Of a DNA stretch of 60,883 nt, positions 1 through 60,883 are shown piece after piece. The translations under genes and the position numbers were made by a program. The stretch comes from an uncultured Gammaproteobacteria bacterium. Lineage in GTDB: Bacteria > Patescibacteriota > Patescibacteriia > Patescibacteriales > GWC2-42-12. Numbering within the stretch: the stretch's first letter is position 1; each line of letters begins with the position of its first letter. Location of the stretch: positions 1 to 60,883 of the forward strand of contig CAYSKV010000006.1 in the NCBI GenBank assembly GCA_964431805.1, read 5' to 3'. Below the pieces are notes generated by a model, which worked only from the letters and a program-made list of their open reading frames with translations, searched no databases and was not told where the DNA came from.

Positions 1-584
1 CCTAAATTTTTTACTTCTTTATTTTCATCGTCAGTAAATTTAAGTTCACGCGCGGCCCTACCGGCTTCAAGTTGCGTTTTTAATTTTTCCAATAAACCCT
101 TTAAAAAAATAGCTTCTTTATTGCCGCTTTTAGCTTCTCGCGCAACTTTATCTAATCTTTTATCAACCGTAGCTAAATCAGCAAAAATTAATTCTAAATT
201 AATTGTCTCCCGATCGCCTTCAGGATCAATCTTACCATTAACATGAATAATATTATCATCTTTAAATTCGCGCACTACTTCGCAGATAGCGTCGCATTCG
301 CGGATATGAGATAAAAATTGATTACCTAAACCTTCGCCTTTAGACGCGCCTTTAACTAAACCGGCAATATCTACAAATTCAATATAAGTCGGAATAATTT
401 TTTTTGGTTTTGAGATAGCCGCTAATTTTTCCAATCTTTCATCAGGAACTTTAACCACACCAACGTTAGGATCGATGGTGCAAAAAGGATAATTTGAAGC
501 TTCAACTTTTTTCTTAGTTAAAGCGTTAAACAAAGTGGATTTACCGACATTTGGCAAACCAACAATACCAATAGATAAAGACAT
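1..584 (-). CDS. ychF: Redox-regulated ATPase YchF (5' part; runs off window)
   Basis: Manual minus-strand translation from ATG at 584: [22 protein letters not shown]...[12 protein letters not shown]...[25 protein letters not shown], the diagnostic YchF motifs; not in ORF track. Confidence 0.97.
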
Positions 585-2470: not shown

Positions 2471-3805
2471 ATGACAACTAAAAACAAGCTTAATATCGTT
2501 TATGTTCCGATTAACTCCTTACGACCCTCAGAATACAATCCGCGCCAATGGGATAATGAGGCAAAAAAGCAATTAAAACAAAGCCTTAGTCGATTCGGAT
2601 TAATTGATCCGTTGCTGGTTAATTCTGCCAAAGGCCGGGAGGGTGTGGTTATCGGCGGACATTTTCGCCTGGCCATAGCTAAAGAGCTGGGATATACGGA
2701 AGTGCCGGCGGTCTATCTCTGTATTGACGATCTGGAAAAAGAAAAAGAGTTGAATCTCCGACTTAATAAAAATTTGGGAGAATTCGATTGGGCTATGCTG
2801 GCTGGTTTTGGCAATTCCCTACTTTCCGACATCGGATTTTCCAGCGAAGAACTAGATAATGTTTTTGGCATTGACGAAAGCCCGGAAATATTTGATTTGG
2901 CTAAAGAGCTAAAAAAATTAAATATTAATAAGATTGAAATTAAAAAAGGAGATATCTGGCAATTAGGAAATAATCGCTTGATGTGCGGCGACTCGACAGT
3001 TGAGGCTGAGATGCTCAAACTTATGGATGGCGTAAAAGCCGACATGTGCTGTACAGACCCACCCTACCTTTTAGATTATCTTAAGGGGAAAAAGAAAAAT
3101 GGCCAGGCGATCACGGGCTTTGGTTACAAGCGCGATCGGCGGTATTTAGAAACTGACGTGTTGCCACCCAACTTTACCGAAAGCTGGATGGCGAACATCT
3201 CTAAAATCGCTCAGCCTGATTTTTCCATTATCGTTTACGAAAACTGGAAAAATATAAGGACTATTTGGGGTGAAATGGAAAAATATTGGAAAGTAAAAAA
3301 TATGATAGTTTGGCATCTTCCTAATCGAGTCCAGGGATTCGCGGCCAAATATAAATTTTTCAACAAGCACGATATTGCCATGGTCGGACAATCGGGCAAC
3401 ATCAATTTTAACATCAAGCCCGAAGACGAGCTTCTGCAAAATGAATATGAAACCGCGCTTTACGCTACTAGCGGAAAACCGCAGTGGGAATCGTATAAAA
3501 AAGGAAAAAAATATTGTCCGACAGATTTCATTGAGTATAAATCAGCGGATAAAAAGAATTCCGGCCAAGGAGTTGTTTTCGGCACTAAACCTTTGGAAAT
3601 TTTAATTCCTTATATTAAAGTCCTAACAAAACGCGATGCGATTATCGTCGAACCATTCGGTGGAAGCGGATCAACATTAATTGCCGCCCAGAAAATGAAT
3701 CGACGCTGTTTTCTAATGGAAAAATCGCCGATCTATGCCGAGGTAATTAGAAAACGCTGGGAAAATTTAACCAACCTTAAAGCGAAAAAATATGAAGGCA
3801 AATAA
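2471..3805 (+). CDS. ParB/Srx N-terminal domain fused to an N4/N6 DNA methyltransferase
   Basis: LRPSEYNPRQW...VIGGHFRL (ParB-like); DPPY catalytic motif; EPFGGSGSTL SAM-binding motif in beta-class order. Confidence 0.92.
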   Translation: MTTKNKLNIVYVPINSLRPSEYNPRQWDNEAKKQLKQSLSRFGLIDPLLVNSAKGREGVVIGGHFRLAIAKELGYTEVPAVYLCIDDLEKEKELNLRLNKNLGEFDWAMLAGFGNSLLSDIGFSSEELDNVFGIDESPEIFDLAKELKKLNINKIEIKKGDIWQLGNNRLMCGDSTVEAEMLKLMDGVKADMCCTDPPYLLDYLKGKKKNGQAITGFGYKRDRRYLETDVLPPNFTESWMANISKIAQPDFSIIVYENWKNIRTIWGEMEKYWKVKNMIVWHLPNRVQGFAAKYKFFNKHDIAMVGQSGNINFNIKPEDELLQNEYETALYATSGKPQWESYKKGKKYCPTDFIEYKSADKKNSGQGVVFGTKPLEILIPYIKVLTKRDAIIVEPFGGSGSTLIAAQKMNRRCFLMEKSPIYAEVIRKRWENLTNLKAKKYEGK

Positions 3806-5775: not shown

Positions 5776-6624
5776 TTATTTCCAAAATTTAAATTTCTTG
5801 AAAAAGTTTGTTATTTTCTGAAAAAAGTTGTTTATTTTATTGAAAAAACTTTGATTATTTTTCTGTTGTGGAATGGTAGAGCTTCCATTTATTAAAGTGT
5901 CTTTCTCTGTTTGTATCTCCAGAGATGATGTGGCAATAACTGGGGAGGAGGTAGCGACAATAACAGGTGAAGAAGATGGCACGGTTGTTGAGGCCGTGTT
6001 TTTCATTTCTTCAACTTTGGATTTTATATTAGTCGCACTTACAACTTTTTTAGATTGAATCGCCGAAATAGGTTGCGAAACTTCATCGGCTTCATTTTTA
6101 ATTGCTTCAGAAATTTTATCTAACGCGGACAAATATGATTTTGCTTCTTCGATGCGTAATGAATAACATTCCAAGGTGGGCGAATAAATTCCTAACAATT
6201 TAAGCCGATCATTGTTGTCTTGAACTTCTATTATTGATTGATTTAATGAGTTTAAAGAATTCTTTGTTTTTACAATTTCTGAATTTAAAAGTTCTTTTGT
6301 TGAAATTAATAAACTTGTATCAATTTTTCCGGTGTCAACATAGGCGATAACTACAAAATAGGCTAAATTACTTGCTTGGCTAATTGGACAAGCATTTGAT
6401 TTTTTACATTCATCGGTGTTACTAAAACTAACCAAACTATCTCGCCAGCCGTCATTGCAAATTGCGCTTCCGTCATAATCCGCGCCAGCGTTGCAATTTA
6501 CACCGAGATGATAAGAACACGCGCCGGAAGTGGCATAAACAGTTATTGGAACTATAAATAAAAAAGCTGCTAATAATATTAAATTGTAGCTAAATATTTT
6601 TTCCATAACTTTGTTTGTTTCCAC
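5776..6624 (-). CDS. Secreted protein with Cys-rich N-terminal module, coiled coil and amphipathic C-terminus
   Basis: Signal peptide; SGACSYHLGVNC...ICNDGW; S/T-rich linker; FFNKINNFFQKITNFFKKF tail. Confidence 0.75.
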   Translation of the reverse strand: METNKVMEKIFSYNLILLAAFLFIVPITVYATSGACSYHLGVNCNAGADYDGSAICNDGWRDSLVSFSNTDECKKSNACPISQASNLAYFVVIAYVDTGKIDTSLLISTKELLNSEIVKTKNSLNSLNQSIIEVQDNNDRLKLLGIYSPTLECYSLRIEEAKSYLSALDKISEAIKNEADEVSQPISAIQSKKVVSATNIKSKVEEMKNTASTTVPSSSPVIVATSSPVIATSSLEIQTEKDTLINGSSTIPQQKNNQSFFNKINNFFQKITNFFKKFKFWK

Positions 6625-28948: not shown

Positions 28949-29060
28949 AGTGTGGACCATAAGGGACTTGAAGGGGCGGAAGCCCCACGCCGACACACAA
29001 TGATTCTATACTCTTATACTCCACGTAAATTTACATTAATAATATTAATGTAAATTTACG
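28949..29060 (-). mobile_element. tRNA-Ala 3'-end duplication with shared mini-element core
   Basis: 24-bp direct repeat (28949-28972 = 29061-29084) around GGGGCGGAAGCCCCAC core and 17-bp hairpin. Confidence 0.7.
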
Positions 29061-29064
29061 AGTG

Positions 29065-29138
29065 TGGACCATAAGGGACTTGAACCCTTGACCTCTTCCA
29101 TGCCATGGAAGCGCTCTAGCCAACTGAGCTAATGGCCC
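29065..29138 (-). tRNA. tRNA-Ala(GGC)
   Basis: Cloverleaf; A32-U38 anticodon loop typical of tRNA-Ala GGC. Confidence 0.95.
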
Positions 29139-59410: not shown

Positions 59411-59501
59411 AGTTTGTTAGTTATTTTATAAAATCTCATTGAGCATTTGAGACGGTTTATTTAGTAGATGTTAGCTGATTAATAGCTTTTTGTCAATCTA
59501 C

Positions 59502-59615
59502 TGGAGCGGGTAACGGGAATCGAAGGGGCGGAAGCCCCACTCCGACACAATGGCTTCTCAACCCATTACCACACTAAAAGATAAATTTATCAACTGCGTT
59601 GCTAACTTTATCTCT
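59502..59615 (-). mobile_element. tRNA-Gly 3'-end duplication with shared mini-element core
   Basis: 23-bp repeat (59502-59524 vs 59616-59638, one mismatch) around GGGGCGGAAGCCCCAC core and imperfect 16-bp hairpin. Confidence 0.7.
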
Positions 59616-59690
59616 TGGAGCGGGTAAGGGGAATCGAACCCCTCTCTCCAGCTTGGAAGGCTAGCATAAAAGCCACTATACGATACCCGC
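59616..59690 (-). tRNA. tRNA-Gly(TCC)
   Basis: Cloverleaf, encoded CCA; loop ctTCCaa. Confidence 0.95.
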
Positions 59691-59702
59691 TAAAAATCTT
59701 TG

Positions 59703-59773
59703 TCGGGCTGCTGGGAATTGAACCCAGTCAACATGCTCCCAAAGCATGCGTACTACCGGTATACGACAGCCCG
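59703..59773 (-). tRNA. tRNA-Pro(TGG)
   Basis: Cloverleaf; catgc-ttTGGga-gcatg. Confidence 0.93.
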
Positions 59774-59793
59774 AGTTCAATTAATAATTGAAA

Positions 59794-59868
59794 TGGTGCC
59801 GGGGGTGAGAATCGGACTCACGACACAATGATTTTCAGTCATTTGCTCTACCACTGAGCTACCCCGGC
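59794..59868 (-). tRNA. tRNA-Phe(GAA)
   Basis: Cloverleaf, encoded CCA; T-loop reads TCCGATT. Confidence 0.93.
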
Positions 59869-59883
59869 CTAATTGAATTCTTG

Positions 59884-59956
59884 TTGCGGGGGTCGGATTT
59901 GAACCGACGACCTCCAGGTTATGGGCCTGGCGAGCTGCCAACTGCTCTACCCCGCG
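59884..59956 (-). tRNA. Initiator tRNA-fMet(CAT)
   Basis: C1-A72 mismatch; anticodon arm ccagg-ccCATaa-cctgg. Confidence 0.9.
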
Positions 59957-59993
59957 ATACTACGCTAAAGCTTCGTATCGCAAGCTTAGCGAA

Positions 59994-60230
59994 TTAAACC
60001 AATCTTTTTTTAAAGAATGCATTTCCAGACCCAGTTTTTAGATATTGCTCAAAATAAGCTGCAATTGTTTTGTTTTTAAACATGCCAATCCAAACAACTT
60101 TAATGGGTAATCTATATTTTGTGTAATCAACTAAACTATTTTTATGTTGTACTATTCTTTTTTTAATATTTTCAGTTAAACCTATATAATAAGTTTTATC
60201 TGAACATAATAAAATATAAACGTAATACAT
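59994..60230 (-). CDS. Short stand-alone GIY-YIG nuclease (track start 60242)
   Basis: MYYVYILLC...YYIGLT..I..RI.QH...AAYFEQYLKTGSG. Confidence 0.9.
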   Translation of the reverse strand: MYYVYILLCSDKTYYIGLTENIKKRIVQHKNSLVDYTKYRLPIKVVWIGMFKNKTIAAYFEQYLKTGSGNAFFKKRLV

Positions 60231-60277
60231 AGACAATCCCATTAAGGCTTGTCCTCCATAGCTTCAGCGTAGGAGGG

Positions 60278-60351
60278 TGGGCATGCCGGGAATCGAACCT
60301 GGGACCTCCACATTATCAGTGTGGCGCTCTAACCAGCTGAGCTACATGCCC
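60278..60351 (-). tRNA. tRNA-Ile(GAT)
   Basis: Cloverleaf; ccaca-ctGATaa-tgtgg. Confidence 0.95.
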
Positions 60352-60540
60352 AAATATTATACAAAATAAAAAGACTGCTTCTAAATAATTTAGGACCAGT
60401 CTTTTTATAATTTATCCTCCGTAGCTTTAGCGAAGGGGGACAAATAGGCCCATAAAACTATTTGTTTATTTTTTTTGTATTTCAGTACTAACAGGCGCTA
60501 ACTCTTCGACTATTTCGATTGTTCACCGAAAAATCTCCCT

Positions 60541-60883
60541 AGAAAGGAGGTGATCCATCCACAGCTTCCGCTACGGATGCCTTGTTACGACTTCGTCCCT
60601 ATCATCGATCCTACCTTCGAACCCTTTACGGGGTTCTTCGGGCATTACCGACTCTCTTGACGTGACGGGCGGTGAGTACAAGACCCGAGAACGTATTCAA
60701 CGTGGCGTGGCTGATCCACGTTTACTAGCGATTCCAGCTTCATGAGGGCGAGTTGCAGCCCTCAATCCGAACTGAGAGAAGTTTTAAAGGATTTGCTCCA
60801 TCTTACGATTTGGCGTCCCTTTGTGCTTCCCATTGTAGCACGTGTGTCGCCCAAGGTGTAAGAACCATGCTGATTTGACGTCA
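60541..60883 (-). rRNA. rrs: 16S rRNA, 3' end (partial)
   Basis: AAGGAGGTGATCCA, CCTTGTTACGACTT, GACGGGCGGTGAGTACA, TTGTAGCACGTGTGT; anti-SD CCUCC present. Confidence 0.98.

Follow-up and report, generated by a model that had tools for sequence, protein, structure and literature searches.

An undescribed family of tRNA-matched structured elements behind tRNA and tmRNA genes of CPR/Patescibacteria-type bacteria

Several RNAs imitate parts of a tRNA. In the tRNA-like domain of tmRNA and in synthetic or viral minihelices, a 7-bp acceptor-type helix is stacked on a 5-bp T-type stem and is joined by a T-loop and a discriminator base, with no anticodon arm; in tmRNA, the remaining RNA is inserted into the body of this domain. 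Plant mitochondrial t-elements, the MALAT1 mascRNA, viral 3' tRNA-like structures and the YrlA Y RNA likewise imitate tRNA parts. Such mimics are recognized by tRNA-processing or tRNA-binding proteins, and some adjoin genes as cleavage signals. Here we describe two copies of an element with the same 7 + 5 architecture in DNA from an uncultured bacterium (GenBank assembly GCA_964431805.1, contig CAYSKV010000006.1, positions 1 to 60,883; the whole of this 60,883-nt stretch is called the window below), one behind tRNA-Ala(GGC) (element A) and one behind tRNA-Gly(TCC) (element B). They belong to an undescribed family of tRNA-matched structured elements that stand behind the tRNA and tmRNA genes of bacteria of the candidate phyla radiation (CPR)/Patescibacteria type. 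We see about an even chance that the element is a cis-encoded, structured mimic of the tRNA 'top half', matched to the tRNA or tmRNA upstream of it.

The elements are closest in architecture to the tRNA-like domain of tmRNA and to the minihelices, and closest in genomic logic to t-elements and mascRNA. Unlike in tmRNA and the minihelices, the 5' strand of the element's T-stem directly follows the 5' strand of its acceptor stem, and the insertion lies between position 53 of the T-stem and position 54 of the T-loop. Unlike tmRNA, which occurs once per genome and combines ends resembling tRNA-Ala with pseudoknots and an internal tag-peptide frame, the elements are 70 or 140 nt long, have no tag reading frame and occur several or many times in a genome, each copy with arms matched to a different tRNA and the family as a whole carrying the arms of many tRNA types. 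Nor do they resemble a canonical tRNA, as the anticodon arm is missing and the T-stem 5' strand is displaced; ARAGORN called neither tRNA nor tmRNA on them, and both ARAGORN and Rfam call the upstream tRNAs only. Unlike t-elements, mascRNA, viral tRNA-like structures and YrlA, they copy the 3' strand of the adjacent cognate tRNA exactly and carry an invariant G+C hairpin, and the Rfam mascRNA model gave no match on them. Across the window and 12 loci, the Rfam 15 models (gathering thresholds and E<=1) matched tRNAs and rRNA only and none of the elements. A search of the accessible literature found no paper containing the core sequence, and nothing relevant on tRNA-like elements in CPR or on the minihelix.

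The elements also bear comparison with mobile DNA. A direct repeat that runs from the T-loop to the 3' end of a tRNA, sometimes into the trailer, is the classic hallmark of integration into tRNA genes, and tmRNA is a known integration hotspot. With the attL and attR sites of tyrosine integrases of the T-loop class, the elements share a direct repeat that starts in the T-loop and reaches or passes the tRNA 3' end, an intact tRNA and the use of tmRNA as a further target, and tRNA fragments of integration origin have been described (PMC9897764). They differ from attL and attR in that the insert of 70 or 140 nt is free of genes, one constant arm serves 18 isotypes, and there is an inverted pairing arm with wobble of the RNA type. 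REP and REPIN sequences, mini-elements derived from IS200/IS605 and attC sites are, like the elements, short, non-coding, hairpin-forming, strand-specific, tolerant of G·T and often found behind genes; unlike the elements, they have family-specific ends, a cognate RAYT, TnpA or IntI and no two-way copy of 12-24 nt of a gene. At the element loci no such enzyme or end motif was found, and the attC R-box GTTRRRY does not fit GTTCGAA. Set against IS200/IS605 and REP elements, which have conserved subterminal hairpins at both ends and insert beside a fixed short target with no long duplication, there is one conserved hairpin end only, the sequence of the spacer hairpin varies, and the long target copy is atypical.

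Anatomy of the elements and their tRNA partners

Read in the sense of the tRNA, the parts follow one another in a fixed order: tRNA, palindromic spacer hairpin, 12-nt inverted arm, inverted T-arm remnant, UGUGUCGGN, core and direct tRNA copy. The 12-nt 5' arm repeats, in inverted orientation, the 3' strands of the tRNA's acceptor stem and T-stem, and the T-arm remnant is degenerate, with a loop that ends in GAGAA. The core consists of GU and the invariant hairpin GGGGC-UUCC-GCCCC, while the direct copy at the 3' side comprises the T-loop, the T-stem 3' strand, the acceptor 3' strand and the discriminator. Together, the 5' arm and the duplicated 3' end pair as a 12-bp acceptor/T-type minihelix around the core hairpin and present the T-loop: 7 + 5 stacked pairs, with the T-loop at the 3' side and the discriminator after the stem. 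An earlier reading of the window, made from the sequence only (the sequence-only reading), had proposed a mobile system acting on several tRNAs; the inverted 5' arm, its pairing with the duplicate and the strand-specific substitutions described below were absent from it.

All tRNAs concerned, called with ARAGORN and Rfam, lie on the minus strand of the window, as do the parts of both elements. Element A follows an intact tRNA-Ala(GGC) (29064..29138; Rfam RF00005, 64.8 bits). Its spacer hairpin (29024..29060) has 18-bp AT-rich arms that are 100% complementary (z -7.8), has no U-run, and runs on without a break into the palindrome that the tRNA 3' strand makes with the 5' arm. The 5' arm, GGAGUAUAAGAG (29011..29022), was delimited by the closing stem of the minimum free energy (MFE) fold and by orthologues, and is the complement of the tRNA 3' strand rather than a copy of its 5' strand; positions 29016-29022 are the inverted acceptor 3' strand and 29011-29015 the inverted T-stem 3' strand. 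Position 3 of this arm is A, and the G3·U70 pair of tRNA-Ala is lost. The middle, UAUAGAAUC AUU GUGUGUCGGC (28989..29010), was defined by alignment and by the consensus of 55 short elements, and contains three features: an inverted T-loop, degenerate and with GAA at its end; a copy resembling the T-stem; and the conserved motif UGUGUCGGN. The core (28973..28988) leads into a 3' part (28949..28972) that is 24/24 identical to the 3' end of tRNA-Ala, with a T-loop copy UUCAAGU at 28966-28972, the T-stem and acceptor 3' strands at 28954-28965, the discriminator A at 28953 and then four trailer bases.

Element B follows an intact tRNA-Gly(TCC) (59616..59690; ARAGORN and Rfam), the last tRNA of a 16S-Ile-Met-Phe-Pro-Gly cluster. 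The spacer hairpin (59578..59614; z -3.7) is imperfect, with a 3-nt loop, and has an orthologue in L125 (loci of the survey below carry L numbers). From MFE folding and from reading the sequence, the 5' arm GUGGUA AUGGG (59562..59572) pairs with CCCGU UACCCGC, one C being bulged. The middle, UUGAGAAG CCAU UGUGUCGGA (59541..59561; consensus and MFE), is followed by the same GU and GGGGC-UUCC-GCCCC core (59525..59540) and by a 3' part (59501..59524) with a T-loop copy UUCGAUU (59518-59524), the T-stem and acceptor 3' strands (59506-59517), the discriminator U (59505) and then CCA + G (59501-59504). Directly past it starts a promoter-like site of rpsP (59496-59468).

The direct repeats pair 28949-28972 with 29061-29084 (24/24, period 112) at element A and 59496-59524 with 59610-59638 (90%, 26/29, period 114) at element B, and in both elements the duplicated segment begins precisely at the T-loop TTC. 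The periods of 112 and 114 bp and the TTC start given by the sequence-only reading were thus borne out, and ARAGORN, Rfam, repeats and folds together upheld the arrangement it had described at both tRNAs, namely a tRNA, a spacer hairpin, the core GUGGGGCUUCCGCCCC common to both, and a second copy of the tRNA from T-loop to 3' end. The Gly duplicate departs from tRNA-Gly at one base of the T-stem strand, where C has become G. Exactly two copies of the 16-nt core GGGGCGGAAGCCCCAC are present in the window (28973-28988 and 59525-59540), where about 0.05 copies are expected and 0 of 100 shuffles reached two; allowing three mismatches added no further copy. Its resemblance to tRNA-Phe, an 11-nt identity over a UGUGUC that looks like a variable loop, we regard as weak, and it is on this match that the tRNA-derived, SINE-like origin hinted at by the sequence-only reading is based. 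The neighbouring genes are trxA/trxB and rpsP/KH/trmD, and the open reading frames (ORFs) adjoining the two elements include no recombinase or transposase, in agreement with the earlier remark that no cognate enzyme is adjacent. Terminator calling on both spacers found no terminator between tRNA and element.

Distribution and tRNA specificity of the family

An exact-core scan of a genome collection holding one genome per species gave 48 loci, about 38 of them in low-G+C metagenome-assembled genomes (MAGs) of the Patescibacteria type (Falkowbacteria, Parcubacteria and some labelled 'Gammaproteobacteria'); the remainder are chance matches in G+C-rich genomes. A degenerate scan of metagenomes, in which the three outer hairpin pairs were free between purines or between pyrimidines, gave 113 matches on 106 stretches. 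After removal of duplicates from both sources, 130 distinct copies were left. A same-strand upstream tRNA was found for 105 of these, covering 18 amino-acid types, and most of the 25 copies with no called tRNA lie at loci cut at a contig end. In L090 the element follows a tmRNA, which ARAGORN identifies as a true tmRNA, separate from the element; in L031, the arms are of the tRNA-His type, including G-1 and CCA, and the element stands behind a protein gene. The joining of one constant core to different tRNA 3' ends, which the sequence-only reading had noticed at two tRNAs, is general (130 copies, 18 isotypes and tmRNA), and the core is almost never found away from a tRNA 3'-end duplication. 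The signature by which the element can be searched is GUGGGGCUUCCGCCCC followed by UUCRANYC.

Some of the element-bearing MAGs are titled 'uncultured Gammaproteobacteria' (L007, L009, L011, L013, L018, L021, L023, L025, L028, L041, L043-L045 and L047). At 34-53% G+C, they have tRNA clusters of the same CPR type and the same elements; their taxonomic label seems doubtful.

The elements fall into two tight size classes of about 70 nt and about 140 nt. The distance from the tRNA end to the core is 50-90 nt in short forms, 120-170 nt in long forms and ~320-410 nt for the second unit of a tandem, and the middle measures 19-24 nt in short and 91-97 nt in long forms. Among 55 short elements the consensus of the middle reads NNNGAGAAY, a copy of the T-stem 3' strand, UGUGUCGGN, GU and GGGGCUUCCGCCCC. 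Long forms contain ~70 extra nucleotides, AT-rich and variable, which are often bracketed by CUGA.../...AUGAUGG (YUGAU, AAUGAYGG); these brackets resemble the box D/box C arrangement of a kink-turn, a likeness we offer as a lead only. A tmRNA-like reading of the long forms was rejected, since there was no ARAGORN call and no consistent tag frame was visible.

From T-loop to 3' end, the copy is identical to its tRNA at 22/22 positions in 56 and at 21/22 in 25 of 101 elements. Repeats of this kind are what the remains of integrated islands would leave, and the elements could accordingly be seen as attR-side relics of tyrosine-integrase islands of the T-loop crossover class, deleted down to a stub. 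The direct repeat of the tRNA 3' part bounds the insert (24/24 and 26/29 in the window; 21-22/22 in 81 of 101), tmRNA is used too (L090), and repeat arrays occur, all of which suits such relics. A single att specificity cannot, however, explain one arm common to 18 isotypes, and on this point the sequence-only reading is supported, the core not being the attR arm of one integrase with a single tRNA specificity. The 'stub' has two sharp lengths and a conserved fold, and its T-loop is preceded by GCCCC, not by a T-stem-like core-binding half-site. Substitutions of the G·U type are meaningless for duplex att sites. In none of the 130 copies was there a coding gene between tRNA and core, an integrase or an island. 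We therefore regard this origin as largely refuted and give it very little credence.

A second explanation, which refines the proposal of the sequence-only reading and which we hold to be unlikely, is that of a non-autonomous element, mobilized in trans, which inserts into tRNA or tmRNA genes at the T-loop and uses the target to rebuild its two arms; the G+C hairpin beside the T-loop would then be the recognition site of the enzyme, such as a recombinase or an enzyme of the HUH type, possibly as folded single-stranded DNA in the manner of IS200/IS605 ends and attC. That one core should stand behind about 19 RNA genes requires some copying mechanism. Occupancy also varies between relatives in the same 16S-Ile-Met-Phe-Pro-Gly cluster, where the element follows Pro in L007, L037 and L045, Gly in the window and L018, and both in L062. 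Tandem arrays are present in L025, which has two identical 173-nt units, and in L033, L042 and L047. Further points on this side are a chimera in L036 that has its 5' arm from one tRNA and its 3' arm from another, and other G+C hairpins that directly precede copies of tRNA 3' ends. Several results speak against this explanation. With an internal coding gene in 0 of 130 copies, the long versions with the same ends and an enzyme that the sequence-only reading had envisaged were not found among them, and a scan of viral contigs with the core gave 10 matches, each of them either fortuitous or a terminator of a G+C-rich phage. What paralogues of the same genome have in common is limited to the family-wide consensus, outside which they have diverged (the two elements of the window; L011 compared with L025), hence there is no sign of recent bursts, and orthologous positions are conserved across divergent genomes. 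The core is identical in lineages that span 31-55% G+C, while its surroundings diverge, as would be expected of a universal cellular partner more than of a transposase that co-evolves with it. Finally, no transposition chemistry is known to us that copies 12-24 nt of the target in both inverted and direct orientation. For the mobile system of the sequence-only reading we found no evidence of recent or autonomous mobility, and a structured RNA fits the family better.

Folding and probable selection on the tRNA-sense strand

In MFE predictions, nearly all short and long copies close with the 12-bp stem, and the G+C hairpin always forms. Covariation was assessed on 43 short copies, aligned in register as N-padded sequences. 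In this alignment 82.8% of the cells of the 12-bp stem are paired, and the stem has a covariation score of 0.545, against 0.146 for shuffled alignments (0/500 as high) and 0.10-0.14 when the partner was slid. A competing local hairpin resembling a T-arm, between the 5' arm and the nearby T-stem-like copy, is 55% paired, as against 82% for the long-range stem; it was rejected as the main fold and retained only as a possible alternative conformer. Three other structures were rejected. A T-stem built from the GUGGG of the core and the T-stem 3' strand shows no covariation, as the core is invariant and T-stems vary. Neither a D arm nor an anticodon arm could be threaded into a cloverleaf with an intron or a split or permuted tRNA. 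In an antisense (+ strand) RNA, with a GGAA tetraloop and acting as a guide against the tRNA 3' end, the G·U pairs become A·C and the fold is weaker.

The minihelix fold is kept on the tRNA-sense strand only, sense being 3-6 kcal/mol better than antisense (-20.7 vs -17.7 and -26.5 vs -20.7 kcal/mol), and three results point to folding that is under selection: the asymmetry of substitutions in the arms, compensation in the core and conservation between orthologues. For the first of these, the scoring used to choose the arms gave G·U and A·C equal treatment. Where the 3' arm has a G, its partner in the 5' arm is U in 50% and C in 35% of cases; where the 3' arm has a C, the partner is G in 73% and A in 14%. 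C-to-U changes, which keep the pair, are thus tolerated several-fold better than G-to-A changes, which break it. An asymmetry of this kind between G·U and A·C is not what neutral, AT-biased decay of a duplex repeat would produce, and it points to a folded single strand, most simply RNA.

In the core hairpin, the degenerate pattern permitted every combination, and the 113 metagenome matches included 93 of the standard form, 12 with G·U, 7 with a fully compensated A-U and 0 with A·C. The single 'AGAGC/GCUUU' hairpin, though pair-compatible, is a chance match within a coding region (L127) and was left out of this count. Between orthologues, five tRNA-Arg(cct)-tRNA-Ala(ggc) loci keep the element with an invariant core and diverged flanks, and the Ala spacer hairpin is kept by compensatory changes (CAU/AUG, CGU/ACG and CAG/CUG). 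The middle is barely alignable in L040, the most distant of these Ala orthologues, where the 3' copy no longer agrees with the tRNA and the 5' arm has changed along with that copy (AAUGG/CCAUU vs AAGGG/CCCUU in the tRNA). In the Gly element of the window, the G-for-C difference from the tRNA converts a U·C mismatch with the 5' arm to U·G. Judging by both cases, the partner of the 5' arm is the 3' part of the element itself and not the upstream tRNA.

The 5' arm itself is not a copy of the tRNA 5' end, because where a tRNA stem pair is not Watson-Crick the arm is the complement of the 3' strand 23 times and matches the tRNA 5' strand 9 times; in all seven Ala elements, A3-U70 replaces the G3·U70 identity pair. 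Spacers are 35-44 nt long; 71 of the 74 form a hairpin, of 8 bp or more, that takes up nearly the full length, such that a single long palindrome extends from the tRNA 3' region through the spacer to the 5' arm. The elements might have no function at all, as a by-product of replication template-switching at palindromic tRNA terminators that repeatedly yields inverted and direct partial tRNA copies, in which small G+C-rich palindromes accumulate. The inverted copy is indeed continuous with the spacer palindrome, and template switching is known to homogenize and expand imperfect inverted repeats (PMC7202029, PMC13100816). Messy partial tRNA copies with other G+C hairpin inserts are found in the same genomes (L034, L046, L007, L032 and L086), and some copies have decayed. 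We nevertheless think a wholly neutral origin improbable, more so than mobilization in trans, since the 16-nt core has been kept from lineage to lineage, as have the GAGAA motif and UGUGUCGG, while all around them has diverged, the changes in the core hairpin are compensatory, the arms are biased to preserve pairs, and length is tightly constrained. Direct repeats so close together would also be expected to vanish fast without selection.

Proposed role and variant loci

As a top-half mimic, the element would be transcribed by read-through from the tRNA and would fold once the tRNA has folded. Acceptor/T minihelices serve as substrates for RNase P, RNase Z, the CCA-adding enzyme and some synthetases, and because the element is such a minihelix, with a T-loop and a discriminator, it may be excised by RNase P and RNase Z-type 3' processing and receive CCA as the tRNA does. 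The remaining parts, namely the GAGAA loop, UGUGUCGG, the invariant hairpin and the extra domain of the long forms, would be inserted where the T-stem meets the T-loop. The payload would be the invariant hairpin, a sequence-specific binding site shown on a tRNA-like scaffold, and the identity of the core at 31-55% G+C amid diverging surroundings suggests a sequence-specific partner common to these bacteria. Alternatively, the whole element could act as a tRNA-specific decoy or as a punctuation or processing signal. The Ala elements, having no G3·U70, are probably not aminoacylated.

For the origin of the mimic, we envisage that fold-back or template-switch extension of the palindrome behind a tRNA yielded the inverted arm. 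The elements could then have spread by local duplication within tRNA clusters, with no dedicated enzyme. Gene conversion by the neighbouring tRNA would keep the direct 3' copy identical, the inverted arm would be corrected through template switching within the hairpin, and C-to-U drift in the arm would be tolerated by the RNA. Unequal crossing-over would produce tandem arrays, as L025, L033, L042 and L047 fit.

Several observations weigh against the top-half mimic. Some 17% of the cells in the closing stem are unpaired, the 5' arms of some copies have decayed (L013 and L044), and single-sequence fold z-scores are modest (-1.3 and -2.2). Since the arms are inverted copies, part of the covariation across isotypes follows automatically, and so it is the G·U/A·C asymmetry and the orthologue comparisons only that speak for selection. 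The strand-specific fold could be that of single-stranded DNA instead of RNA, and is in this respect equally compatible with mobilization in trans. About 43% of spacers look like intrinsic terminators, which would limit read-through, although the two spacers of the window do not. Transcription and processing are themselves predicted from the sequence and the modelled fold. RNA structure alone, moreover, explains neither the identity of the 3' copy beside a drifting 5' arm nor the presence of one core behind about 19 different RNA genes.

A broader proposal, which we advance tentatively and think rather doubtful, is that CPR bacteria may keep either processed 'shadow' top halves of their tRNAs or a mobile element that rebuilds both arms. 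Each 'shadow' RNA would have the acceptor/T helix of one tRNA or tmRNA and the same invariant hairpin beside the T-loop, and would act in a tRNA-specific manner, either through recruitment of one factor to the enzymes of tRNA ends or through competition for these enzymes. Should the elements prove to be processed RNAs, they would be a widespread class of tRNA mimics new to this huge, little understood bacterial radiation, with an unusual combination of tRNA-specific arms and one universal hairpin, and would offer a handle on tRNA processing, protection or regulation in such small genomes. If the element is mobile, it would reveal a way to target the universal T-loop that spares the host gene. 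The elements also account for many 'partial tRNA' or 'att-like' repeats in CPR genomes, which are otherwise open to mis-annotation as pseudogenes or prophage scars.

Several loci near tRNA clusters depart from the usual arrangement. The end of the window (59616-60883, minus strand) holds, in order, the 16S 3' end (60543-60883), tRNA-Ile, a GIY-YIG ORF, tRNA-Met, Phe, Pro and Gly, and then rpsP. No tRNA-Ala or 23S follows the 16S in the window, so the rRNA operon appears to be unlinked or rearranged. The 82-aa GIY-YIG ORF (59994-60242, minus strand; Pfam PF01541, E 1.5e-13), between tRNA-Ile and tRNA-Met, is found in the same place on four near-identical metagenome contigs; it was rejected as the enzyme of the element because other genomes that have the element lack this ORF in the corresponding cluster.

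In L103 (about 150-440, plus strand), L159 and L125, a conserved promoter-like site (TTGAC-17-TAAAAT) and a ~70-nt leader are fused to a T-arm and acceptor 3' strand, of the Pro type in two loci and of the Gly type in one. The acceptor 5' strand, D arm and anticodon arm are missing there, and a hairpin and a short element come next. In L036 (4540-4800, minus strand), an insert of ~150 nt with a complete tRNA-Arg(gcg) in it splits another tRNA at the anticodon loop; the chimeric element of this locus has a 5' arm that matches the split tRNA and a 3' arm that matches tRNA-Arg(gcg).

Other hairpins occur in comparable positions. Behind tRNA-Val(gac) in L034 (about 6150-6300, minus strand) and L046, there is a partial second copy of tRNA-Val from the D-loop onward, interrupted three times by other G+C-rich hairpins (for example UCCGCC-AAA-GGCGGA), once inside the T-loop after TTC. 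In L007 (2405-2515, plus strand), tRNA-Gly(tcc) is followed by a long G+C-rich hairpin and then by an acceptor-stem 'microhelix', GCGGGU-UCCCGUU-ACCCGC, which reuses the T-stem and acceptor 3' strand of that tRNA; tRNA-Ile of the same locus is followed by a partial copy from the anticodon loop, with another G+C insert ahead of the T-loop. A 38-nt G+C-rich palindrome interrupts the 3' copy of the element in L032 (1854-2700, minus strand). Next to it are a third, partial tRNA-Pro 3' end with a different G+C hairpin ahead of it, and then a 223-aa ORF that has an N-terminal helix-turn-helix (Pfam) and a stretch, LLGLGLYLGEGS, that looks like LAGLIDADG and was not confirmed by Pfam. Finally, L086 (about 3150-3400, minus strand) has a second type of element between the tRNA and a long element of the main family, with the same GAGAA-containing 5' part and a different hairpin, CCCC-GAAGCGAUAGCGUA-GGGG, before the copy of the tRNA 3' end, which suggests a wider superfamily.

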